Shown here: in pieces, positions 20,421 to 56,440 of the stretch
Layout: every line of letters begins with the position of its first letter
Position numbering within the stretch: position 1 is the first letter of the stretch
Assembly: GCA_041389025.1 (NCBI GenBank)
Contig: JAWKSP010000001.1
Span: 64,002-128,001, forward strand
Direction of reading: 5' to 3'
Origin: Minisyncoccota bacterium
GTDB taxonomy: Bacteria > Patescibacteriota > Minisyncoccia > Phycocordibacterales > UBA918
Length of the DNA stretch: 64,000 nucleotides
Notes under the pieces: generated by a model
Databases searched by the model: none
What the model saw: only the letters and a program-made list of their open reading frames with translations
Told to the model about the DNA's origin: nothing
Position numbers and translations under genes: made by a program

Positions 20421-21231
20421 GAATCCAGACAGAAAGAAAGTTCCGTCTATTGCTTTCTATTCCTACAGGTACTGAGATGTTTCACTTCCCTGCGTACGCT
20501 CTCTCATACAAGAGTTTCTACTGAAAGTAGAAGGGTTTCCCCATTCAGATATTTCCGGGTCAAAGGTTGATTGGCACCTCACCGAAACTTATCGCAGCCA
20601 TTCCACGTCTTTCATCGCTTCTTAAAACCTAGGCATCCACCATACACCCTTACATTCCTGTAAGGAACGCTATACACCGTAGTTAATACGATTATGAATA
20701 GCTTAGTAACTTTCATAAATAAAAGATACTTCCCCCACCGATGTTCGCTCACTCGGAAATGAAAATGAGCAAAGCTCGTTTTCATTTCACTCATTCGCTC
20801 CATCGACAAGTAACGCTATACACCGTTTGGCTTTACGTTCGCTTACCTTCATGCTGTGCACCGCTGCACAATTTTTGAGTGTGTGTCTGGTCAGACAAAA
20901 TACATAATCTGAACCAGACTGTGTTTGATCTGTTGTGGACGAAAAGACCCTGTCCGAAGACTTAAATCTTTACACAACAGATCAGTTTACCTGCTCCGAA
21001 CATTTTTTGATAAATCAAAAAATGTTCGGAGTGCCACGCGCGCGTCGAACACGCGTGGACTTTTCGGAACAGACCTTATCAATCTGTTCCTTTAGAATAT
21101 GCGATTGTCAAACATCGCGTACCTCCTTGAGTTTAGTTTTAAAAAAACCGCGTTACCGCGGGAAAGCCGTAAAAACGAATTTCGCGCGACTAGCTAATTT
21201 CTTTTCCTAAACTCATAAATACGTGAGCGCC

Positions 21232-27552: not shown

Positions 27553-28032
27553 CTATTTAAGTGTTACCTTGGCTCCAGCTTCTTCAAGCTTAGCTTTTAG
27601 AGCTTCAGCATCTTCCTTCTTCATTCCTTCTTTAAGTACCGCTGGAGCACCATCTACCATTTCTTTAGCTTCTTTAAGTCCTAGACCAAGAACTTCTTTA
27701 ACAGCTTTAATAACAGCAATCTTCTGTGCACCAGCATCAGTTAGTTCTACCGCGAATTCTGATTGCTTCCTCAGCACCAGCTGCAGCACCTGCACTCGAG
27801 CAGCTACCGCTACCGCTGCAGCTGATACTCCAAAACGCTTTTCAAGTACTTTTACTAACTCGTTTAGCTCAAGTACACTCATTTTTTCTACTTTCTCAAC
27901 TAAATCTTTAAATTCAGCTGGTACTTCTACTGATTCATCTACACCATCATTATTTGTTTCAGAAGTAGTTTCTTCTTTTGTTTCAGTTGCAGTTGTTTCC
28001 TCTGCTACTGTTGTGTCTTTTTCGTCTGACAT
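27553..28032 (-). CDS. rplL: 50S ribosomal protein L7/L12, with a ~38-aa acidic N-terminal extension and an atypical hinge
   Basis: Conserved [23 protein letters not shown]...[35 protein letters not shown]...[10 protein letters not shown]. Confidence 0.9.
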
Positions 28033-29249: not shown

Positions 29250-29711
29250 TTAATTCGGTAAATTTACAGAGCCTTCTCTGTCACCTTTGAATTTTCCAGA
29301 CAAAGACACAGCACCAGGTCCAGCTATAAACAAAGCGATAGTTAAACCAAGCGCTAATACGTCTAGATCACCATTACCACCGATATTAAAACCTTTAACT
29401 GCCCACCAAGCCACGAAAGAAATGACCGCCAGCCAAAAAGCCCAAAATCGAGTCATCACACCAGCTAAAATTGCTAATCCGCCAAACAACTCAGCAAAAG
29501 CAACCAAGAAAGCCAGTAATCCCACCATCGGAAAACCAAGGTCGATCAACATAGTGGAAAAATCTTCCAAACCATTTTCACCAAAAAACTTTGCGTATCC
29601 ATGTGCTACAAAGAAAACACCGACCGCTACCCTTGCTACTAATAATGCATAGTCGACGTCACAATTGGCTGGTCGTACTTCATCAAAAAACGTTAAAGAT
29701 TTTTTAAACAT
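29250..29711 (-). CDS. DoxX family membrane protein
   Basis: VGVFFVAHGYAKFFG...LFGGLAILAG pattern with 4 TM helices. Confidence 0.7.
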   Translation of the reverse strand: MFKKSLTFFDEVRPANCDVDYALLVARVAVGVFFVAHGYAKFFGENGLEDFSTMLIDLGFPMVGLLAFLVAFAELFGGLAILAGVMTRFWAFWLAVISFVAWWAVKGFNIGGNGDLDVLALGLTIALFIAGPGAVSLSGKFKGDREGSVNLPN

Positions 29712-29791
29712 AAATAATTAATTGTTAACTTAGTAAAAGTAAAGTCCTCTTTACCAATTTTAGCAATATTTAAATTATTTATGGGTTAGTT

Positions 29792-30271
29792 TTAAACAGG
29801 TTCATTAGGATTAGAAACTACAATATCTTCTCGCTTAAGCTTACTAGAAAGCGATATCACCCCTGGACCAACTAACATAAGTGCTAAAGTCATTCCAATT
29901 GACAGCATAAGTTCTAAGTCACCCATATATACTGTAGTCCCAGGCAAACCTTTAACCGTAATCCAACCATAAACACTGATTAAAGTTAGCCAAAATGCTG
30001 AAAAGCGAGTCAATACACCAAGTATAATTGCCAATCCTCCAAATAACTGAGCAAAAGCTACCAGAAAAGCAAAAGTAGCTGCTGCTGGGAAACCTATTCC
30101 CGCTAAAATATCGGTAAAAGAAGATAGTCCGCCTTCACCAAAGAATTTTTTATAACCATGTACCATAAAAAAAATACCGACAGTAACTCTTATAGCAAGT
30201 AAGGCCCACGAGGTTTCAGTCACAATTGGCCTTGGCTCATCAATTATTGAACAAATCTCCTTTAAAATCAT
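29792..30271 (-). CDS. DoxX family membrane protein (paralog)
   Basis: VGIFFMVHGYKKFFG...LFGGLAIILG; tandem paralog of the preceding gene. Confidence 0.7.
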   Translation of the reverse strand: MILKEICSIIDEPRPIVTETSWALLAIRVTVGIFFMVHGYKKFFGEGGLSSFTDILAGIGFPAAATFAFLVAFAQLFGGLAIILGVLTRFSAFWLTLISVYGWITVKGLPGTTVYMGDLELMLSIGMTLALMLVGPGVISLSSKLKREDIVVSNPNEPV

Positions 30272-30384: not shown

Positions 30385-30864
30385 TTAGCTATCATTTTTC
30401 TTTGCTAAATAATCCCCTCCATTAGCGACTAATGTACCGGTATTTTGCAAAAAAGTTGCTACCGCCGATATCGCTAACAACAATACCGGAACAAAAGCAT
30501 AGGCAGTGAGTAGATAAAGAAAAACCACCAAAAGTCCACACCAAACACTGATACAAGATGGACAACCAAGCAAATCTGCCAAAGTTCGACGTGGACCAGT
30601 TTTTGGTTTTGTCAATTCATATCCTCTTCCTACCTTTTTTAAATCCCAAAATTGCTCTCGAAAAAATTTAGTTACCGTATCAAATGCAAATAGCCGTACT
30701 AAACGCCAAGTTGCTAAAGTCATTAAAATATAATCAATCGGCCTAAGGCCAACTTCTAAAAACCTTGACTCAGTCTCAAGAATAATGGTCGCCATAATTA
30801 AAAGCGCTAAAAAGAAAACAAAAAAAATAAAGTTCCAAAAGTACTGATCAGTAACTCGTATCAT
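30385..30864 (-). CDS. Small membrane protein with CPSC/WCG motif
   Basis: Three or four TM helices; LLGCPSCISVWCG. Confidence 0.35.
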   Translation of the reverse strand: MIRVTDQYFWNFIFFVFFLALLIMATIILETESRFLEVGLRPIDYILMTLATWRLVRLFAFDTVTKFFREQFWDLKKVGRGYELTKPKTGPRRTLADLLGCPSCISVWCGLLVVFLYLLTAYAFVPVLLLAISAVATFLQNTGTLVANGGDYLAKKNDS

Positions 30865-31131: not shown

Positions 31132-33201
31132 TTAGCTACCTTGAATTGTTTCGTAACCAGTTCGGAAGTCTTGAGCTGGTGTAGGTACGTATCCTTGTGG
31201 ATCAGTAACACCGTCGTCTGTAGCTGAGTAATTAACCTCAGTTAGACTTACTCGGTAATCACCAGAAGCTACAGGATCGATAGTTACACGTAGAGTAAAG
31301 GTTTCAGTTTCACCTTCACGTACGGTAAACACTCCACTAGTTTCCTCATCAGCAGTTGATGAAAGAACTCCTGATACTGTATCACCAGTTGATGAAGCAT
31401 TTGATCCGCTGTAAGTAAAGGCTACACCAGTTGTAGAAGTTGAACCTTCGGTTGCAAGTTCTTTGATGTAGAAATCACCTTCAACAGCTTGTACTTCAAA
31501 CTCAATAGTAAACTCACCTAGAGTGTCGTTATCACCTGAAGTATCAGTTGAAGTTTCAACACCATCAATAGGTAGAAGGATACCTTCTGCTACTAGAGTG
31601 TGTGACTCACCGTTAGCTGAACCTGTAAGTTGTCCAGAATCTAGATCATCAGCACCTTCGGCGTCTGTTAGATCTACTTCAGTACCTGTTACGTCAGCTT
31701 CAATAGTAGTACCGTTTTCATAACGTGGTACACCATTGCTTACTTCTTGAGCATTAAGATCAACTACAACCTTAACAGTTACCTCATCTCCCTCATCAAC
31801 TACGATGTCACCATCAATGTCGAATTCAAAAGTAGTTTCGGTACCAGTTGTACTGGCTGAGTTTTCGGCGTCAAAAGTTTGACCATCAATCTCAAGAGCA
31901 ATATCATCAATAACCTTTGATGAAGTTGTTCCGGTTGTTACCTTAACAAACAAGGTATTGATTTCGATATCACCTTCTTTAGCTTCAATGTCATATTCCA
32001 TAATGGTTACGCCATTGGTCTTTGAATCAGTATCAACTACGATATCAGTTGCATCTGGATTACTTGAAGCGGTTGAGAACTTAAGTTCTTCACCGTCACC
32101 TTCCTCAACGATTTCGAAGTCTGCTGTAGCGGTTGGAAGTTCATCAGTAGTATCATCATCTGAAGAAACACCATCAGCATCAAAGTATCGAACTTCAGTT
32201 GCTGTAAGTCTCCAATCAGCATCAGAACCAGCATCATCAACATGACTTGTTATGTTTGCTGCTACTGTTACCTTTACCTTTTCATCTTCTTCTAGAATAA
32301 GACCAAGACGTGAGAAGCGGAATTCACCGTCATCTTCATTTAGATAATTATCCTCATCGTCAGCTTCAAATTCAGCAATCTTATCACCATCTACCCATAG
32401 AGAGATTTCATCAAACACATCCCAAGGATCAGATTCAGTTGGTGTATTTTGACCAACTAGAGTGAAAGTGATGCGATCTACTTCAATATCACCATCAGTA
32501 GCTTCCATAGTGATCTCAGCGATCTCTACATCTTCAGCTCCTTCTTGGATATCAGTATCATCTGCATCATCCATCTCAAAGGTATCTAACTCACCCTCTC
32601 CTGAAAGAGTCTTGTTGTCTTCCTCCTCTTCCTCCTCTTCCTCTTCCTCATCAGGAGTTGGAGTTGGTGGAACCACTACTACTGTACATAGACCATTAGC
32701 CTTAGCACGAGTACCTGGACCAAAGTATCCAGTTGGATTTACAAGACCGGCTGGAGATAGAATCTCTGATCGGTACTTAACTTGTAATTTAGAAACTGCA
32801 GCTGCGGTTGCTGGACCGTAGTATTCAGTCTCCATTCCCATTGAACCAGCACCGGTAGCAGCTACACGAGTATCTGGGTCAGAGTTTAGAAACTGTTGTA
32901 GTTTCATTACGTCCATTCCGGTTGAACCGTTTGATAGGTCACGAGTCCAAGTGTATGGACAAACACCAGAAGTCATTCCTGTTGAACCGCTACCTTGTCC
33001 AAGTTGTCCTTGAAGGGTTGCGATCTGAGCAAGAAGGTCATTAATCATCTTTTGCAGATCTTCAGCTGATTGAGCCTGCGCTGCAGGAGCATAAGCTGAG
33101 AAGATCATTGCTAGTGCAACAAAAGCCACTGCGACTTTTGAAGCAAAATCTTTTGCAATAGTCATATATGTAATTAAATATTTTTTGCGTGGGGTTAACA
33201 C
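31132..33201 (-). CDS. Secreted surface protein: signal peptide, peptidoglycan-binding-like domain, poly-Glu tract, and a long acidic Thr/Asp/Glu-rich repeat region
   Basis: Signal peptide ...AMIFSAYAPAAQA. DVMKLQQFLNSDPDTRV...GYFGPGTRA resembles PG_binding_1. EEEEEEEEEEDNK tract. Start is probably at the internal Met near 33165. Confidence 0.5.
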   Translation of the reverse strand: MLTPRKKYLITYMTIAKDFASKVAVAFVALAMIFSAYAPAAQAQSAEDLQKMINDLLAQIATLQGQLGQGSGSTGMTSGVCPYTWTRDLSNGSTGMDVMKLQQFLNSDPDTRVAATGAGSMGMETEYYGPATAAAVSKLQVKYRSEILSPAGLVNPTGYFGPGTRAKANGLCTVVVVPPTPTPDEEEEEEEEEEDNKTLSGEGELDTFEMDDADDTDIQEGAEDVEIAEITMEATDGDIEVDRITFTLVGQNTPTESDPWDVFDEISLWVDGDKIAEFEADDEDNYLNEDDGEFRFSRLGLILEEDEKVKVTVAANITSHVDDAGSDADWRLTATEVRYFDADGVSSDDDTTDELPTATADFEIVEEGDGEELKFSTASSNPDATDIVVDTDSKTNGVTIMEYDIEAKEGDIEINTLFVKVTTGTTSSKVIDDIALEIDGQTFDAENSASTTGTETTFEFDIDGDIVVDEGDEVTVKVVVDLNAQEVSNGVPRYENGTTIEADVTGTEVDLTDAEGADDLDSGQLTGSANGESHTLVAEGILLPIDGVETSTDTSGDNDTLGEFTIEFEVQAVEGDFYIKELATEGSTSTTGVAFTYSGSNASSTGDTVSGVLSSTADEETSGVFTVREGETETFTLRVTIDPVASGDYRVSLTEVNYSATDDGVTDPQGYVPTPAQDFRTGYETIQGS

Positions 33202-34225
33202 GCGTACTTACCAAAAGGTAAGCTAAGTTAACTTGATAACGTCTAATAATATGAATTAATTCATATTCGTAAGTGGTCTATCACCTCCACTTTCGTAATA
33301 TCACTAACTCCACACATCAACTCAATAAATTTTAAATAAAAATTCATGAGGCAAGATGTGAAGGTTAGCTGCAATATCGGTCTGAATTTCTGTCATTAAG
33401 CAATCATAAGCGGAACAAAGTCATTCTGAGTATTTTGTGTTTTTTATTTGAAGGTACACAAAACCTTTAGTAATTTTACTTACCTAAAACTAAATATGTA
33501 GTTATCTTTTAGATAACATTGTCAAAGAACGTTCATACTTAACTTACAAGCTTAATCCATTAATTGAGTGAAAGTTGGACTATGGTCTTCATAGAGCAAA
33601 GTTTTCACCTTTAGAAAAAGCGCATAAGCGCGTGAGCGCAGTATAGCAGATTTTTATACTTTTGGTACAGCTTTTATCAGTATGATAATGTGGATTACAT
33701 TTCATCTAAAATAAAAGTTATAAAACAAATTTTTAGAAAAATATAAAATTAATACTGTAAAGCTGTAGTAAGCTACCTTACGTTAAAGTACAAAAAACGT
33801 CAATAATTAATACCGTTCTGTTAGTCTGCTTGTTATGACGACCAAGCAAAATAGTTCTTACCAAGCAAAATAATTAGAAAACATAAAAAGAAAAATTTCA
33901 AGTTTTCATTAGGGCATCTGTGTCAATTAATTTATATAAAGTAATTGCGAAACGACTCCGCTCTCATAAGCAAAAGTAGGGTTGTTCCGTAGTTATTTTT
34001 CTTTGCTTAGTCTAAGTGTATCTACTAGCCTACCTAATATAGTAAACAAAAATAAATTGTCTTTAAAAATTTCTGACTTTTACAAGCTAAATTAAAGACA
34101 AAAATAAATATATACTTTTTATTATATTTTAATTTTAAAGTAAGTCCTATACATAAAGTTATGCCTAAATTACTATTATTTAATTTGTTTTATAATAGAC
34201 AACAGCATTATGTCTTTTTAATACT

Positions 34226-34954
34226 TTAAGAGACGACCGAGTATTTAGACCAACGTCTTTCACCCTGTCTTATAACCTCTCCTTTTTCTATAAGACTATT
34301 TAATTCTCTTTGAATTGTCTTTTCGCTTACATCTGTTATGACTTCAGCAATGTCTTTTATAGTTGCTTCTGGTTTGGCTTCTAAGACTGTCTTTATTCTA
34401 GTTCCTCGATCAACCAACTGACTGTAGACCATGTGAGCATCTGAACTAATGTCTCCTTTTGGTATAGAAACTCTTTGTGATCTAGGTAACGATGGAGTTT
34501 TACTTACAGGTTTAGTATTCATTTCTTTTGTATCCTTAAACATATCTGAAGCTGACACAGTAGCTGGTACAATCTCTGAGAAATGGTTACGGATATATCG
34601 TTGCACTAAATCAATATCTTCTTCAAGCAACTGTAAAACATCGTCAGACAAGATTCTAGCAGAATTAGCAAACCGTAAACTTCCCTCTAAAGACAACAAT
34701 CCGTGCTGTAAAGTAAATAATTTGTCTTTGGCTTCCTGTTCAAAAAAAGACAAAGAGTCCATTATTGAGACTTGCACCTTTGAGGCATTGTCCATGATGT
34801 TTTTTATATAAAAGTCATTGTATTTTGATTCTTCTATATAAGACATTGTATAGAAAATGACTGATAAAATATTTTCTGTCTTTTTAAAAACATTGTTGTA
34901 GTATTCTTGATTGTTAGCTAGTCTTTTTGTATTTAATAGTCCTTTACTGTCCAT
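34226..34954 (-). CDS. Hypothetical protein with C-terminal winged-helix (DeoR-like) domain
   Basis: C-terminal IKDIAEVITDVSEKTIQRELNSLIEKGEVIRQGERRWSKY. Confidence 0.4.
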   Translation of the reverse strand: MDSKGLLNTKRLANNQEYYNNVFKKTENILSVIFYTMSYIEESKYNDFYIKNIMDNASKVQVSIMDSLSFFEQEAKDKLFTLQHGLLSLEGSLRFANSARILSDDVLQLLEEDIDLVQRYIRNHFSEIVPATVSASDMFKDTKEMNTKPVSKTPSLPRSQRVSIPKGDISSDAHMVYSQLVDRGTRIKTVLEAKPEATIKDIAEVITDVSEKTIQRELNSLIEKGEVIRQGERRWSKYSVVS

Positions 34955-41384: not shown

Positions 41385-41442
41385 AAAAGATTAGCCTGTG
41401 ATAAAAATCACAGGCTTTTATTTTTTGAGACATTACATTACA

Positions 41443-41556
41443 GTCCCTTTGCTCTCAATTGATCATCTATTTCCCCAAATTTAGGGTCATCTGAAACGAT
41501 TTTTTCAAAGAAACGTTTCCAAAAACTTTTAATGAACTCATAAGCCTTCATGATAT
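41443..41556 (-). CDS. Putative 37-aa small protein
   Basis: AGGAGA SD 7 nt upstream of the ATG; MKAYEFIKSFWKRFFEKIVSDDPKFGEIDDQLRAKGL. Confidence 0.3.
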
Positions 41557-41683
41557 ATTCTCCTCTTAAAGACTATGTTAGTAAATTATATACCTTTTTA
41601 TAAAACTAAGGTAAATATCCACATGGTTACATTCAGCACTAAAACTATAAAGCTGCCGGCTTTGCCGGCGGGGCTTTATAGTT

Positions 41684-41891
41684 TTTAGTGCTGAATGTAC
41701 GGCATCAAAGCCATAAATCGAGCACGCTTGATTGAGCGAGCAAAATCACGCTGAGCTTTGGCTGAAAATCCGGTACGCTTACGACTAAACATACGAGCGG
41801 TGTGGATTTACTATGAGCATTTAAACGATTGACTTTGTAAATAATATACCAATTGCCGCTTTTTTATGTAGATTTGGTTGTTCCATATCAT
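41684..41891 (-). pseudogene. rpsR: Ribosomal protein S18 (rpsR) remnant. A C-terminal S18-like segment is preceded by in-frame TAG-TAA, and no recognisable N-terminal half is present.
   Basis: Canonical position after rpsF-ssb. Frame reads MIWNNQIYIKKRQLVYYLQSQSFKCS**IHTARMFSRKRTGFSAKAQRDFARSIKRARFMALMPYIQH*. The C-terminal half matches the S18 consensus ...RRxTGxSAKxQRxLxxAIKRARxLALLPY. Confidence 0.5.
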
Positions 41892-41916: not shown

Positions 41917-42363
41917 CTAGAATGGTATATCTTCTGGATTTATTTCTTCTTCTGGATAGTCGGGCAAAGCTGAAGCGTTAGCATCATTATTATCAGTAGC
42001 TTTAGCAGATGATCCTCCGCTTGGAGCGCCACTACCGCCACTCTTAGGCCCAAATTGTACTCGATCAGCCACTATTTCAGTTCGGTACTGCTTTTGACCA
42101 TCTTTTTCCCAACTCCTAGTCTGCATTCGTCCTTCTACAAAAGCACTATTGCCTTTATTTAGGTACTTAGCACAGTTTTCACCCTGCTTACCAAACACAA
42201 CAATATTGTGATAATCAACCGATTCTTGCTTGTTACCGTCACGGTCGTTATATACTCGGTTGGTAGCCAAGGAAAAAGTACAGACTTGCATACCACTTGG
42301 TAACGCTCGCATTTCTGGATCACGAGTTAAATTACCGTATACCATTGCTTTGTTCAGATACAT
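41917..42363 (-). CDS. ssb: Single-stranded DNA-binding protein
   Basis: OB-fold core with a Gly/Ser-rich tail ending in the acidic DIPF motif. Confidence 0.9.
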   Translation of the reverse strand: MYLNKAMVYGNLTRDPEMRALPSGMQVCTFSLATNRVYNDRDGNKQESVDYHNIVVFGKQGENCAKYLNKGNSAFVEGRMQTRSWEKDGQKQYRTEIVADRVQFGPKSGGSGAPSGGSSAKATDNNDANASALPDYPEEEINPEDIPF

Positions 42364-42413: not shown

Positions 42414-42959
42414 CTATTTACTATCCTCAGATACTTCTTCTGTCTTACCCTCAACTGACTCAGTCTCTTCTTTTTCATTCACCTCTTCATCAGTTTCTTC
42501 ATCATCAGTTTCACCCTCTACATCCTCATCATCAATAACTTGTACTTTTCTACTAGCAATTGAGTCATGAAAACGAAAAGGATTTTCTTCTTCCACTTTA
42601 GTTAACTTAACCAACAAGAAACGTAATAATTCTTTAGTTCCATCTAATGACTCAGTTAAACTATTTAATTTGGCTGGATCAAGACGAAAACGAACCCAAC
42701 CGAAGTAAGCACTGCCGAATTTTCGGTTTTTCCCTTCAAGATACTTAATAATTTCATAAGCCAAATCAAAACGTTTTGGTGATTCCTCATCAAATATTTC
42801 ACCCTTGGCCTTGGTAATATGGTTTTTGAGCTGATCAAAAACACTAGCTACTTCCCCTTCGGCAACTGTTGGAAGTACGTGGAAAGCAAATTCATAACTA
42901 ACAAGCTCTCGCTCATCAGCCTGACTTGCTTCAGCTGCCGGCACTTTTGTTTCTGACAT
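42414..42959 (-). CDS. rpsF: 30S ribosomal protein S6 with long acidic C-terminal tail
   Basis: YEFAFHVLP...FGWVRFRLDP S6-like core; position upstream of ssb. Confidence 0.75.
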   Translation of the reverse strand: MSETKVPAAEASQADERELVSYEFAFHVLPTVAEGEVASVFDQLKNHITKAKGEIFDEESPKRFDLAYEIIKYLEGKNRKFGSAYFGWVRFRLDPAKLNSLTESLDGTKELLRFLLVKLTKVEEENPFRFHDSIASRKVQVIDDEDVEGETDDEETDEEVNEKEETESVEGKTEEVSEDSK

Positions 42960-46542: not shown

Positions 46543-47978
46543 TTAGTTTTCCAATCGTTTAAACAAATTCTCTGGTTTTTTATTTTCTTCGATAGCTTTG
46601 AGGATTATTTCTGAGGTTTCAGGCATAAATGGTTCAATTGAAAAAGCTATTCTATAAAGCTCTTTCACCAAATAGATAATCTGTAATTTCGCCTTCTCTT
46701 TATCTATCTTCACAACCTTATAAGGCTCTTGCTCCTGAATCAATTCATCGAGGTCTGCTATATAGCCCCAAATATAATCTAAAGATTTATTTAATCTAAA
46801 GCCCAAAGCCTCGTCTTTTACTAAAGGTATTTCCTTTTTTTCAGAAATAGCAACAGGGCTTTCTAAATGCGTCTCCGCCATCTTCATTACCCGAGCCACC
46901 AAGTTACCAAGGCCATTTACCAAGTTGGCGGTATACCACTCGTCCATTTTCTCCCAGGTGATATCAGAATCGTCAAACGGATGTACATGACGAAGCAAAA
47001 TATAGCGAGTGGCGTCGGTACCATAACGCTCTACCATTTCGTATGGACTGATCACATTCCCCAGCGACTTACTCATCTTTTGTCCGCCGCTATTGATAAA
47101 GCCGTGATAAAAAATCTGGTCAGTAGTTGGTAAGTCTGCTGATATCAGCATCGCCTGCCAGATAATCGACTGAAAGCGCACTTGATCCTTTCCGGCCAGC
47201 TGCAACACCTCACCCTCAGTCCAAAACTTCTTGAAATTCCCCTCTTCGTCTGGCCAACCAAGGGTCGAGATATAGTTGGTCAAAGCATCAAACCACACGT
47301 ACATCACCTGATCTTCATCGTCCGGCACCGGCACTCCCAGTCCATGCGACTTTTTTGGCGCGAAATACTCAAGTCTTCCAACCCCCCTTTCACAAAATCG
47401 AGCGCCCACTGTCTTTGCCATTCCGGTACAGTTGATTCTTTTTTGTCGAGATATTTTACCAATTTATCTTGATAATTTGATAATCTAAAGAAATAGTTTT
47501 CCTCTTCGACTTCTTCTACCGGCCTATGATGTATCAGACAACATTTGTTTTCATCGAGTTCGGTTTCTTTATAAAAAACCTCACAGCCAACACAATAAAG
47601 ACCGGTGTACTTTTTCTTATAGATATCGCCTTTTTCAGCACAGCGTCGCCAAATCTCTTGAGCGGCTTTTTTATGAGTCTCGTCACTGGTACGTATAAAA
47701 TTGTCATAAGAAAGATTGAGGGTTTGTCCCAATTTCTTAAATTCATTGGCATAATGATCGACATAAGCCTGTCTATCTTCCCCTTTTTCATCGGCTTTTT
47801 GGGCGATTTTTTGCCCATGTTCGTCAGTTCCGGTATTAAAAAACACCTCGTGCCTTAAAAGACGATAATAGCGAGCCAAAGTATCCGCTTGCACCACCTC
47901 AAGCCCAAAACCAATATGTGGATCAGCGTTTACATACGGTAAAGTGGTGGTGATATATTTAGCTGGTTTGTCTGACAT
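46543..47978 (-). CDS. metG: Methionine--tRNA ligase, interrupted by an apparent 1-nt frameshift in a G-run at ~47336-47338
   Basis: N-part (47304..47978) has PYVNADPHIGF (HIGH-like) and a CxxC zinc knuckle. C-part (46543..47421) has WFDAL..KMSKS. The expected ...DLSISRQKSRMDW|GVPVPDDEDQVMYVWFDAL join requires one extra G. Confidence 0.8.
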
Positions 47979-52785: not shown

Positions 52786-55700
52786 TTAGATTTTGTTTAT
52801 CGCAATCTTTAGTTGATTTCCGCCAATTTCTAGTACTTTTCCGTCAGTAACAGCTTCAAACTTTATTTCGCTGGCACCAACAGTCTTTTTGATAGTTTCA
52901 GACATGGTCTTTATCATGTCTTCAGTCTCTGTTTTTGCTTGAACTATAAGTACAATATCGTCCTGTGGTTTAAGTCCAGCTTCTTTTCTCGTGTCTTGAA
53001 CAGCTCGGATAAGCGCGCGCGCTTCCCCTTCCATTTTCAGTTCTGGGGTAATTTCCCAATCAAAATCAAATTTTGATTCCTCTTCCTCAACCACTTTCTT
53101 TAGTGAAACCTTCTTCACATTAAGCTCATCCGCTAAGATTGATGACACTTCTGTCCAACCACTTGACTCTACTATTTCATCTTCAATCAAAAATTCTGCT
53201 AGAGGTTGGCGGACATTTACTTTATTTTGTGTTCTTAGTTTTAGACCGATATTGGCGTAATCTCTGACTTTAATCATATTAACCAAAAGTTCACTGTTTA
53301 CCTTACCTTCCTCTGGCCACTTAGCCAAGTGCACACTTTCCGCTTCAATTTCTTCCTTAGTCTTCTGATACAAATATTCAGCGTAGAAAGGCATGGCCGG
53401 TGCCATGACCTTTGCTAGTTCACGAAGAACATAGCGCAAGGTACCAAGCGCCAACTTCTTATCTTCCACATTCTCTCCTTTCAAGCGGTCGCGTGAGCGG
53501 CGTAGATACCACACCGACAAGTCATCAATAAAATCAGTGATTGGTCGCACAGCCTTATCGAGCTCATAGGCTTTGTAGCCGGCGGTTGATTCGGTGATAA
53601 GTTGATTGAGGCGCGCCACGATCCACTTATCTAAAACATTATCTGAATCGTGGCGCGCCTCACCACCATCCGCAAACATTTCATACATCGCCAGCACATT
53701 GTGAAGTCGTCCGATGTTCTTCCGTTGTATTTCAAGCACGTCTTTTTCAGAAAAACTCAAATCTTCACCATGCACCACCGGCGAAGACAAAAGATAGTAG
53801 CGCATCGAGTCTGCCCCCAAACGCCCCACCAGCTCCATCGGGTCAGGATAGTTCTGCAGCGACTTACTCATTTTCTTTCCGTCTTCCGCCAAGACCAATC
53901 CATTTACAATCACGTTCTCATACGGCGACTTACCAAAGAGCGCTACTCCTAAGACGAGCATGGAATAAAACCACCCACGAGTCTGGTCCAGACCCTCGGC
54001 AATAAACTGCGCTGGGTAATGTTTGGTTTCAAAATCATCCTTATTTTCAAACGGATAATGAAACTGACCATACGGCACCGATCCACTCTCAAACCAACAG
54101 TCAAAGACGTCTGGCACTCGCTTCAATTCCTCCCCATCTTCATACAGCATAAAATCGTCGATATATGGGCGGTGATAGTCAAGCTCATAATCGTCATTAT
54201 GTGGAAGTGGAATAAACTTCATTTCAGATACCCTTCCCTTGTTTGGATATTGTTTTTCCCAACTAGCCACCACCTCATCTTGACTGAGACCAGTAGCTAC
54301 CGCATTCAATAAAGCTAAAGGATCGCCGTGAGATACAATCAAAATATTTTTTCCTTTATAAGTAGATTCAAGTTCATACAAGAAATCACCCATTCGTTTT
54401 TTTATATCAGTCCATGTTTCACCATTCTTGGGTGCGTTTTCAAACCGAGACAAACCGCGTGGAAAATCTGAAAAAAACTCCTTTAAAGAACATCCTTCAT
54501 ACTCACCATGATTTGTTTCTTGAATACGATTATCAACAATAATATTATCCGTATTAATACCAATTTCCTTAGCCACCAATTCTGCGGTTTGTTTGGTTCG
54601 TAACACCGGTGAAGTAAATATAAGATCAATTTTTCCTTTAAGAGATTCACCAGCTTGTTTTGATTCCTCTTCTCCTTTCTTAGTCAGCGGATAAGCGTCT
54701 ACCTTATCTGTAACAACTTCCAGTACATTTTTTTCACTTTCTCCGTGACGCATCACAAAGTATTTGTTACCACTTTTCGGCACATACTCATGTATCTCAG
54801 CCATGCTACCGAACACCTTATACTCACCAGTCTTTTCATTTTTCCAGATCGGTAGCGGCGCCCCCCAATAACGCTGCCTAGACACCGCCCAGTCACGCGC
54901 TCCCTCCAGCCACTTACCAAAGCGATTTTGTCCGACATAGTCTGGCACCCAATTCACTTTATTGTTGGCGGCCACCAGCTCATCCTTCATATCAGTCACT
55001 TTCACAAACCACGACGTGGTCGCGTAATTCAACAGCGGTGTGCTGTCACGCCAACAATGCGGATAACTATGAGTAATATTTTCTTTCTTAAAAATCTTTC
55101 CGGCCGCTTGCAAGTGACGCAAAACTTCAATATCCGCATCCAAGTGCGACACGCGTGCCTCATCGTCATCCTTTGGTTTCACTAGTTGCCCAGCAAAGTC
55201 TGTCACAAAATCCATAAACCGCCCGCCATAATCGACATGATGCGCAATTGGGATATTATTTTCCTTGGCTACGTTCATATCGTCCTCACCATAAGCCGGC
55301 GCTAAGTGCACCACACCAGTACCCTCCTCACCAATTTCTACAAAATCCGCGTGGTAGATCTTCCAGGCGTTTTCACGATCCTCTAGTTCTTCAGTCTTAA
55401 AGTAGTCAAACGGTGGCTGGTATGACAGACCTAGCAAATCTGACCCTTTCATTTCTTCCACTATTTTGTATCCATCTACAACAGTTTCTAACTGCACAAG
55501 ACGTTCTTTTGCCAGAATAACAAATTCACTTTTCTGATTTTCTAAAGTACTACTACCGTCGTTATGAACTTCAACATCTCCCTTTGTAACTTTCACCTTC
55601 ACATAATCCAACTCCTGATTAACCGCTATCGCCATATTACCCGGCAGTGTCCACGGGGTCGTCGTCCAAATCAAAATACTGGTATCAGTCACTTCTCCTT

Positions 55701-56397
55701 GATCATCCAAAAGCGGCATCCTGACTGTCACCGCGATATCCTTCACGTCTTTATAACCTTGATTCACCTCAAAGTTAGACAGAGTTGTCCCACATCGCGG
55801 ACACAAATGCATGCTCTTAAACCCTTCGTATACCAAGCCCTTTTCATGAAGTTGCTTAAACACCCACCACACGCTCTCGGTGTAGTTTGAGTCCATGGTC
55901 TTGTAATCATTTTCCATGTCCACAAAACGACCGAGCCGCGGAATGATCTGTCGCCAATCATCCGCATACTCCAAGACCGCCTCCCGAGCGGCTTCATTAA
56001 AATTCTTAATACCGTAATCTTCGATATCTTTTTTGTTGGCTAGACCGAGCTTCTTCTCAATCAGGTTTTCGAGTGGCAAACCATGACAATCCCAACCCCA
56101 CTGCCGCCTTACGCGGTAGCCATTCATCGTCCAAAAACGCGGAATTGCGTCTTTGATCGTACCAGCCAAAATATGTCCATAGTGCGGCAAACCAGTCGCA
56201 AACGGCGGTCCATCATAAAAAATATAATCTCCTTTCGGATCTTCTCCTGCCGGCTTTTCGATGCTCTTATTAAAAATTTCGTTTTCTTCCCAGAAAGTCT
56301 GAATTTCCTCTTCCCGTAAGGCCACCTCAGACTTCTCTACTTCTTTTACCACCTCAACCGAGTCGTTCTCACGACCATGTACTTTTTTATCTTTCAT
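52786..56397 (-). CDS. ileS: Isoleucine--tRNA ligase (type 2, eukaryote-like) with an in-frame ~185-aa histidine-phosphatase (PGAM-like) domain inserted in the catalytic core
   Basis: PHYGH (HIGH), WTTTPWTLPGN (editing CP1), SRQRYWGAPLP, DVFDCWFESG and KMSKS are all present and collinear. The ORF-track start at 56403 is TTG; the ATG is at 56397. Confidence 0.9.
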   Translation of the reverse strand: MKDKKVHGRENDSVEVVKEVEKSEVALREEEIQTFWEENEIFNKSIEKPAGEDPKGDYIFYDGPPFATGLPHYGHILAGTIKDAIPRFWTMNGYRVRRQWGWDCHGLPLENLIEKKLGLANKKDIEDYGIKNFNEAAREAVLEYADDWRQIIPRLGRFVDMENDYKTMDSNYTESVWWVFKQLHEKGLVYEGFKSMHLCPRCGTTLSNFEVNQGYKDVKDIAVTVRMPLLDDQGEVTDTSILIWTTTPWTLPGNMAIAVNQELDYVKVKVTKGDVEVHNDGSSTLENQKSEFVILAKERLVQLETVVDGYKIVEEMKGSDLLGLSYQPPFDYFKTEELEDRENAWKIYHADFVEIGEEGTGVVHLAPAYGEDDMNVAKENNIPIAHHVDYGGRFMDFVTDFAGQLVKPKDDDEARVSHLDADIEVLRHLQAAGKIFKKENITHSYPHCWRDSTPLLNYATTSWFVKVTDMKDELVAANNKVNWVPDYVGQNRFGKWLEGARDWAVSRQRYWGAPLPIWKNEKTGEYKVFGSMAEIHEYVPKSGNKYFVMRHGESEKNVLEVVTDKVDAYPLTKKGEEESKQAGESLKGKIDLIFTSPVLRTKQTAELVAKEIGINTDNIIVDNRIQETNHGEYEGCSLKEFFSDFPRGLSRFENAPKNGETWTDIKKRMGDFLYELESTYKGKNILIVSHGDPLALLNAVATGLSQDEVVASWEKQYPNKGRVSEMKFIPLPHNDDYELDYHRPYIDDFMLYEDGEELKRVPDVFDCWFESGSVPYGQFHYPFENKDDFETKHYPAQFIAEGLDQTRGWFYSMLVLGVALFGKSPYENVIVNGLVLAEDGKKMSKSLQNYPDPMELVGRLGADSMRYYLLSSPVVHGEDLSFSEKDVLEIQRKNIGRLHNVLAMYEMFADGGEARHDSDNVLDKWIVARLNQLITESTAGYKAYELDKAVRPITDFIDDLSVWYLRRSRDRLKGENVEDKKLALGTLRYVLRELAKVMAPAMPFYAEYLYQKTKEEIEAESVHLAKWPEEGKVNSELLVNMIKVRDYANIGLKLRTQNKVNVRQPLAEFLIEDEIVESSGWTEVSSILADELNVKKVSLKKVVEEEESKFDFDWEITPELKMEGEARALIRAVQDTRKEAGLKPQDDIVLIVQAKTETEDMIKTMSETIKKTVGASEIKFEAVTDGKVLEIGGNQLKIAINKI
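54214..54768 (-). other. Histidine phosphatase / phosphoglycerate-mutase-like domain embedded in IleRS (residues ~546-730)
   Basis: YFVMRHGESEKN (RHG catalytic His), RTKQTAELV, ETNHGEYEG and IVSHGDPL (second His). Lies between the IleRS SRQRYWGAPLPIW and DVFDCWFESG motifs. Confidence 0.7.
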
Positions 56398-56440
56398 ATT
56401 CAAATTTAGTTTTTATGTATATCAGACATATTAATAAACA

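Follow-up and report, generated by a model that had tools for sequence, protein, structure and literature searches.

A frame-disrupted rpsR gene in a Minisyncoccota genome assembly and its probable origin in localized consensus errors

Ribosomal protein bS18 is regarded as essential and, as far as is known, universally conserved; together with bS6 it binds the central domain of 16S rRNA. In the stretch of DNA analysed here (the window, 64,000 nucleotides of a Minisyncoccota metagenome-assembled genome, or MAG, from a Paceibacterota bacterium of the CPR, 37.6% G+C), the whole S18 domain is not contained in one uninterrupted ORF. A 35-codon ORF carries its C-terminal part, and the remainder is split across two other frames by four indels. 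In the public record the 35-residue product (MEZ4103754.1) carries the name '30S ribosomal protein S18'. The locus raises the question of whether this bacterium has lost S18, produces it by unusual means, or is represented by a faulty sequence.

The rpsR locus and the anatomy of its lesions

The disrupted gene lies at the canonical site after rpsF and ssb (Table 1), as had been proposed in an earlier note made from the sequence alone. The note's assignment of the last codons to S18 was likewise borne out by a match of the 35-codon ORF to the Pfam family Ribosomal_S18 (PF01084; 37.5-38.5 bits, cut-off 21), which covers profile positions 19/24-52 of 52 only, that is, the C-terminal two-thirds of the domain. 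The two stop codons that it had described just upstream in the same frame are present (TAG 41813-41811, TAA 41810-41808). Its interval for the gene, 41684-41891, was roughly right, with the stop codon ending at 41685, but the start is at 41886 and not at 41891, where a chance frame-0 ATG shares the frame of the C-terminal ORF. No second S18-like sequence was detected in the 64-kb window, either by tblastn with three reference S18 proteins or by a clade HMM run against all stop-to-stop segments, and no other S18 on the 622,966-bp contig carrying MEZ4103754.1 was present among approximately 120 S18 matches listed in a homology search.

Table 1. Coordinates of the rpsR locus, its neighbours and other affected genes in the window
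Feature	Coordinates	Strand	Description
rpsR (bS18), complete locus	41685..41886	-	Start ATG 41886-41884, stop TAA 41687-41685; from DNA alignments to four syntenic loci (L001-L004) and the 30 nearest intact genes
rpsR, intact 5' segment	41851..41886	-	Encodes MEQPNLHKKAAI in the frame of ATG 41886; matches relatives' MEQHNLHKKAAL/DAI
rpsR, lesion zone	41799..41850	-	Four indels (-1, -3, +1, +1) in 52 nt, net -2 nt; located against a consensus built from the 30 nearest intact genes
rpsR, 35-codon ORF (S18 C-terminal half)	41685..41792	-	Encodes MFSRKRTGFSAKAQRDFARSIKRARFMALMPYIQH; follows ssb by 25 nt plus the disrupted stretch
ssb	41917..42363	-	Intact, directly upstream of rpsR; Pfam SSB, 126.5 bits
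rpsF (bS6)	42414..42959	-	Intact, first gene of the rpsF-ssb-rpsR cluster; Pfam Ribosomal_S6
Long stem-loop	41628..41699	-	Starts in the last rpsR codons; arms of ~25 bp with one bulged A; inner GCCGGC-AAA-GCCGGC hairpin at the tip
metG, split in two overlapping ORFs	47978..47304 and 47421..46543	-	MetRS catalytic domain divided between the two, N-terminal part in the first and C-terminal part in the second
rplL (L7/L12), frame-scrambled hinge	27553..28032	-	Lesions near 27797 and 27765
tRNA with 8-nt anticodon loop	14627..14705	-	Loop TTGTTTAA; ARAGORN anticodon 'gttt'; adjoins tRNA-Asn(GTT), downstream of 23S-5S

The earlier note had interpreted the locus as a remnant interrupted by an insertion of approximately 30 nt carrying the stop codons. 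Comparison with the rpsF-ssb-rpsR loci of relatives, which it had suggested as a check, speaks against both parts of this interpretation: alignment to 30 intact orthologues reveals a full-length gene with four small indels, and at 202 nt the locus is 2 nt shorter than the 67-codon gene (204 nt) of the nearest relatives. The first lesion is a 1-nt deletion at 41850/41849 (between ATTG and GTAT). The first invariant Asp of the IDYKD motif is lost by replacement of GAY with ATT at 41842-41840, which equals the loss of a G together with a longer T run, and the second Asp codon of the motif is removed by a 3-nt deletion at 41833/41832. Two 1-nt insertions follow, one near 41812 (CAT[A]GTAAAT) and one near 41800 (CACA[C]CGCT). 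The first of them creates the TAG-TAA pair that is seen when the sequence is read in the C-terminal frame. Only one or two of these indels coincide with a homopolymer. The 25-mer of the lesion zone is unique in the window, and the idea of a repeat or mobile element inserted there was rejected.

It had also been stated that none of the frames encodes an S18 N-terminal half. This statement is not supported by the alignment, in which translation from ATG 41886 gives MEQPNLHKKAAI and continues in shifted frames as (Y)IIYK-VNRLNAH, then VNPH, which returns to the first frame, and finally ARMFSRKRTG... to the end in the third frame. Each piece in the lesion zone still encodes conserved S18 residues. 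The N-terminus that had been expected (RRGGR..KRRK) is not that of this clade, whose S18 sequence reads MEQHNLHKKAALEHIDYKDITRLSAYINPHARMLSRKRTGFSAKAQRDFARSIKRARFMALMPYIQH with the N-terminus MEQHNLHKKAALEHIDYKD. A clade-specific S18 HMM was required because the Pfam model fits this N-terminus poorly; with Pfam, the scores of the read-through product and two hand-made chimeras rose only from 38.5 to 41 bits. When the four pieces were joined with no residue added, the resulting 66-aa protein scored 118.5 bits over positions 1-67 of the clade HMM, compared with 76 bits for the 35-aa ORF alone. From the IDYKD motif onward it also aligned, as far as the C-terminus, with bS18 chains of known structure (E = 9e-10).

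Two structural features were observed around the locus. The stem-loop at the 3' end of rpsR (inverted repeats I2 and I4, the arms differing by one A, A5 vs T4) has a folding energy of -53.1 kcal/mol (z = -12 vs shuffles) and is probably a terminator or 3'-end structure. The part of the lesion zone that deviates most (41834-41850) matches, as a direct repeat, a promoter-like AT-rich stretch 256 nt away (41578-41594) at 15 of 17 positions; the match is near chance expectation and probably a chance match in AT-rich DNA. The AT-rich stretch precedes a small ORF (41551..41438) with a strong AGGAG Shine-Dalgarno sequence. This ORF was considered as a truncated homologue of the ORFs that relatives carry there, a possibility rejected for lack of homology.

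The gene in relatives and the selection acting on it

For comparison, 164 related loci were collected, including 80 from species-representative genomes (found with the S18 of an intact relative as query), 80 metagenomic loci (found with the window SSB) and four syntenic loci. An intact full-length S18 ORF (63-76 aa) is present in 155 of the 160 loci with an S18 match. The window is the sole case of an internal disruption, as the four other partial matches all abut contig ends. The gene order VanY-like protein, S6, SSB, S18, small ORF, EF-P (on the other strand) and sigma factor is common to the window and the four syntenic loci. In a separate search with the C-terminal 40 residues, nearly all of the approximately 120 Patescibacteria S18 proteins listed were 62-70 aa long and 73-97% identical over the query. 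The sole short protein among them, a 35-aa NCBI entry (P0002), is identical to the window ORF and represents the source record itself. The nearest relatives share ~72% nucleotide identity over the neighbourhood and 82% SSB amino acid identity. SSB and S18 scans found no same-species sequence among the loci from species-representative genomes and metagenomes, and the DNA encoding the lineage-specific peptide MFSRKRTGFSAKAQRDFA had no match in metagenome contigs.

The closest counterparts are the bS18 proteins of Paceibacterota and Parcubacteria MAGs, such as three 67-aa proteins (P0001, P0005 and P0018) that have the same genomic position, begin with MEQ.NLHKK, are encoded by genes within 2 nt of the length of the window locus and are 97-100% identical to it over the last 35 residues. 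In contrast to these genes, the copy in the window is interrupted by four indels over 52 nt, lacks both IDYKD Asp codons and has no single coding frame. Over the last 36 codons, 17-18 nt differ between the window and its two nearest relatives (L001 and L003), with 12-16 of the differing codons synonymous and 1-2 non-synonymous. By this ratio, rpsR was under strict purifying selection essentially up to the present. The combination of several indels (four to six) with almost no amino acid substitutions, all within 52 of the 202 nt, is the signature of indel-type error and not of neutral decay.

These comparisons bear directly on the possibility that a full-length S18 is produced by programmed recoding, through bypass, frameshifting or stop read-through. 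The frame-0 ATG at 41891 shares its frame with the C-terminal ORF, and an A AAA AAG-like run is present near the 5' end, both of which would suit such a mechanism. Programmed bypassing in phage T4 gene 60 and frameshifting in dnaX (-1) and prfB (+1) each use one conserved recoding site, and the window gene resembles them in being an essential gene with an in-frame stop and a conserved part downstream of it. Unlike them, it would need four independent frame changes (-1, -3, +1, +1) within 52 nt, and no single bypass or frameshift can restore the frame. In addition, the sequence to be bypassed encodes conserved S18 residues in other frames, the frame-0 read-through product MIWNNQIYIKKRQLVYYLQSQSFKCS has no S18 similarity, and the relatives all encode S18 in one uninterrupted frame, which leaves no conserved recoding signal. 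Translational bypass had been listed as a possibility in the earlier note; the alignment already effectively refutes it, and we consider any form of recoding scarcely conceivable here.

Another possibility is that the 35-aa C-terminal peptide functions as a split or minimal ribosomal protein, with or without a separate N-terminal peptide. Its ORF begins with ATG and is perfectly conserved, and the lesion zone contains TGgTATATT, which weakly matches an extended -10 element. This ATG, however, is the conserved internal Met codon of the ...PHARM(F/L/M)SR... segment of the full-length gene and not a newly evolved start, and it lacks a Shine-Dalgarno sequence upstream. Promoter-like matches are no more frequent than in shuffled sequence (5 found vs 4.9 expected), and a new internal promoter for the ORF was rejected on this basis. 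No 35-aa S18 from other lineages is present among the 120 listed homologues, and, judged by solved structures, such a peptide would be missing the half of the fold that contains IDYKD. A functional mini-S18 is thus highly improbable, if slightly less so than recoding.

Other defects in the window and the origin of the lesions

The metG gene carries a comparable defect. The intact MetRS of a relative matches the window in two frames across position ~47,400, and the repaired protein aligns contiguously. The break falls within 47332-47360, in a 30-nt interval that holds an A6 run (47357-47352). Because HGLGVPVP, the counterpart of EGLGVPVP in the relative, is already in the downstream frame, the break is placed at or near this run, and the alignment suggests that metG is most likely split there by a single frameshift. 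The 224-aa N-terminal MetRS fragment is annotated separately in NCBI as MEZ4103763.1. Both this fragment and the 35-aa S18 (MEZ4103754.1) are NCBI proteins from the same 622,966-bp contig (locus-tag prefix R3B60), and the two defects therefore lie in the deposited assembly and do not stem from extraction of the window.

In rplL, the hinge is frame-scrambled and deviates from the AVAVA(A/G)P(G/A)A..GGAEEQSEF sequence found in 10 of 10 relatives. In the DNA alignment to the relatives, one nucleotide is missing from a CC pair and, at a distance of 33 nt, two are missing from GAAGAG; rplL is not flagged by gene callers because its overall frame is preserved. The 8-nt anticodon loop of the tRNA in Table 1 may reflect one erroneously inserted nucleotide or a natural peculiarity. 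No counterpart of this tRNA was found in the fetched loci of relatives, and the only homologue of its neighbour gene is on a contig of 2 kb that does not carry the tRNA.

Outside these sites the assembly is of good quality. S6, SSB, EF-P, the sigma factor, VanY and other proteins agree with 27-50 orthologues at conserved columns and have no garbled runs; against 50 orthologues, ssb has 7 mismatches at 108 conserved columns and rpsF 2 at 74. Full domain coverage was found for ArgRS, IleRS, RecO, L10 and ClpP. The same-frame ORF pairs ArgRS/DUF2914 and IleRS/RecO were considered as genes interrupted by in-frame stops, but they are separate complete genes. The window contains 202 A/T homopolymers of at least 6 nt, and a frameshift was found at one only. 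The defects are rare local clusters in very conserved translation genes and not generic homopolymer noise. Because only one frameshift occurs among the 202 homopolymers in an otherwise clean assembly, a uniform homopolymer-error model fails to account for four indels in 52 nt.

Several further features of the window were recorded. The 23S rRNA gene (14949-20663, minus strand) spans 5.7 kb, compared with a 2.9-kb model, and has no adjacent 16S gene. It holds at least two LAGLIDADG homing endonuclease ORFs, 15429..16082 (PF03161) and 16854..17366 (PF00961), consistent with intron-type insertions; some CPR bacteria carry introns in their 16S and 23S rRNA genes (10.1101/2022.01.07.475337, citing Brown et al. 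2015). IleRS (52786-56403, minus strand, 1205 aa) has a His_Phos_1 histidine-phosphatase domain (PF00300) inserted in the middle of its catalytic domain, at residues 549-710. Two tandem genes for DoxX-family membrane proteins (29250-30271, minus strand) lie beside L10/L12 and tRNA-Pro, followed by a DUF1360 gene (30385..30864), and DoxX is also found beside L10/L12 in a Nomurabacteria relative (L166). A region of approximately 1 kb (33201-34226), upstream of the gene for a large Asp/Glu/Thr-rich surface-type protein, contains no ORF of at least 40 aa in any frame and no Rfam family at gathering score.

A genuine and very recent pseudogenisation of rpsR, leaving the organism with no S18 at all or with a second copy elsewhere in the genome, has to be weighed against these observations. 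The lesions are present in the deposited sequence, are far denser than anything elsewhere in the neighbourhood and remove both invariant Asp residues of IDYKD, and the loss of several ribosomal proteins is on record for CPR bacteria (10.1101/2022.01.07.475337). Those reported missing are L1, L9, L25, L28, L29, L30, L32, L33 and S21, and S18 is not among them (10.1101/2022.01.07.475337). The losses of L30, L9, L1, L28, L29, L32, L33 and S21 resemble the present case in the CPR host and in an apparently non-functional ribosomal protein gene, but they are clean clade-wide absences, whereas the window rpsR is present, syntenic, constrained and intact in every relative examined, with S18 complete in 155 of 155 informative relatives. 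A pseudogene would be expected to show relaxed selection and dispersed lesions. Here the lesions are confined to 52 of 202 nt, and since the C-terminal half shows no relaxed selection, decay would have to be extremely recent and still have produced four to six lesions in 52 nt. By our own calculation, four events placed uniformly on 204 nt would cluster in this way with P ~ 0.06. The 64-kb window offers no second S18, and MetRS would be inactivated as well, which is incompatible with a living lineage; loss of both MetRS and S18 in such a lineage is not plausible. We therefore regard pseudogenisation as unlikely, although it is the least improbable of the alternatives.

Assembly error had been named first among the possibilities in the earlier note, and it is the one favoured by the evidence. 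Very probably, the disruption of rpsR represents localized consensus or assembly errors in the deposited MAG, and the gene is otherwise an ordinary single-copy bS18 gene. It is read as such because it is not the only essential translation gene affected in the window: comparable small indels, as expected of an artefact, were found in metG, in rplL as a compensated -1/-2 pair, and possibly in a tRNA, and the damage in rpsR is dominated by indels without amino acid divergence. A tight indel cluster (-1, -3, +1, +1, plus GAY to ATT) in 52 nt would have broken up a single 67-codon ORF into four segments in different frames, which would be why only its last 35 codons are seen by gene callers. The true allele would read GA(A/G)CAT...ATTGAYTACAAAGAYRTC...CATGTAAAT...CACACGCT as one 67-codon ORF, with A7 expected in metG and CCG...GAAGAG in rplL.

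The errors may have arisen by a localized failure of consensus building or polishing where the gene is very conserved. Reads of related populations in the same sample may have cross-mapped onto it, or the patch may have been too error-dense for polishing or short-read mapping. Residual indels that fragment gene calls have been documented in long-read MAG assemblies (PMC9262707; PMC12007338). Like the indel errors of long-read and hybrid assemblies (PMC9262707; PMC12007338), the indels in the window are small and split essential conserved genes, several per assembly (metG, rplL, rpsR and possibly a tRNA); an A6 run is the site of one break, and CC or GAAGAG repeats are the sites of others. Unlike them, they are few and clustered and not spread over the many homopolymers of the window. 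Were the assembly Illumina-only, every k-mer would be real and the lesions would have to be real too. It is established how the lesions are built, that no relative shares them, that the selective signature of the gene is intact and that further essential translation genes in this assembly contain glitches of a similar kind.

Consequences for the record and for CPR ribosomes

It is very unlikely that the lesions exist in the organism and that bS18 has only just been inactivated in this Paceibacterota lineage or is replaced there by the 35-residue C-terminal peptide. If this were so, the disruption would be the first bS18 loss in a free-standing bacterial lineage and would extend CPR ribosome simplification to the small-subunit core; no earlier bacterium would have had a small subunit with a mini-S18 or without S18, and the frameshifted metG would somehow have to be rescued, for example by slippage at its A-run.

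On the favoured reading of consensus error, the 35-aa '30S ribosomal protein S18' and the split MetRS in the public record are to be treated as assembly defects. Such entries could mislead marker-gene and completeness pipelines as well as studies of ribosomal protein loss in CPR bacteria. The clustering of the glitches in highly conserved translation genes, and not in homopolymers generally, suggests a specific failure mode of metagenome consensus building or polishing. The organism itself most likely has a normal S18, which would pair with S6 on the central domain of its 16S rRNA.
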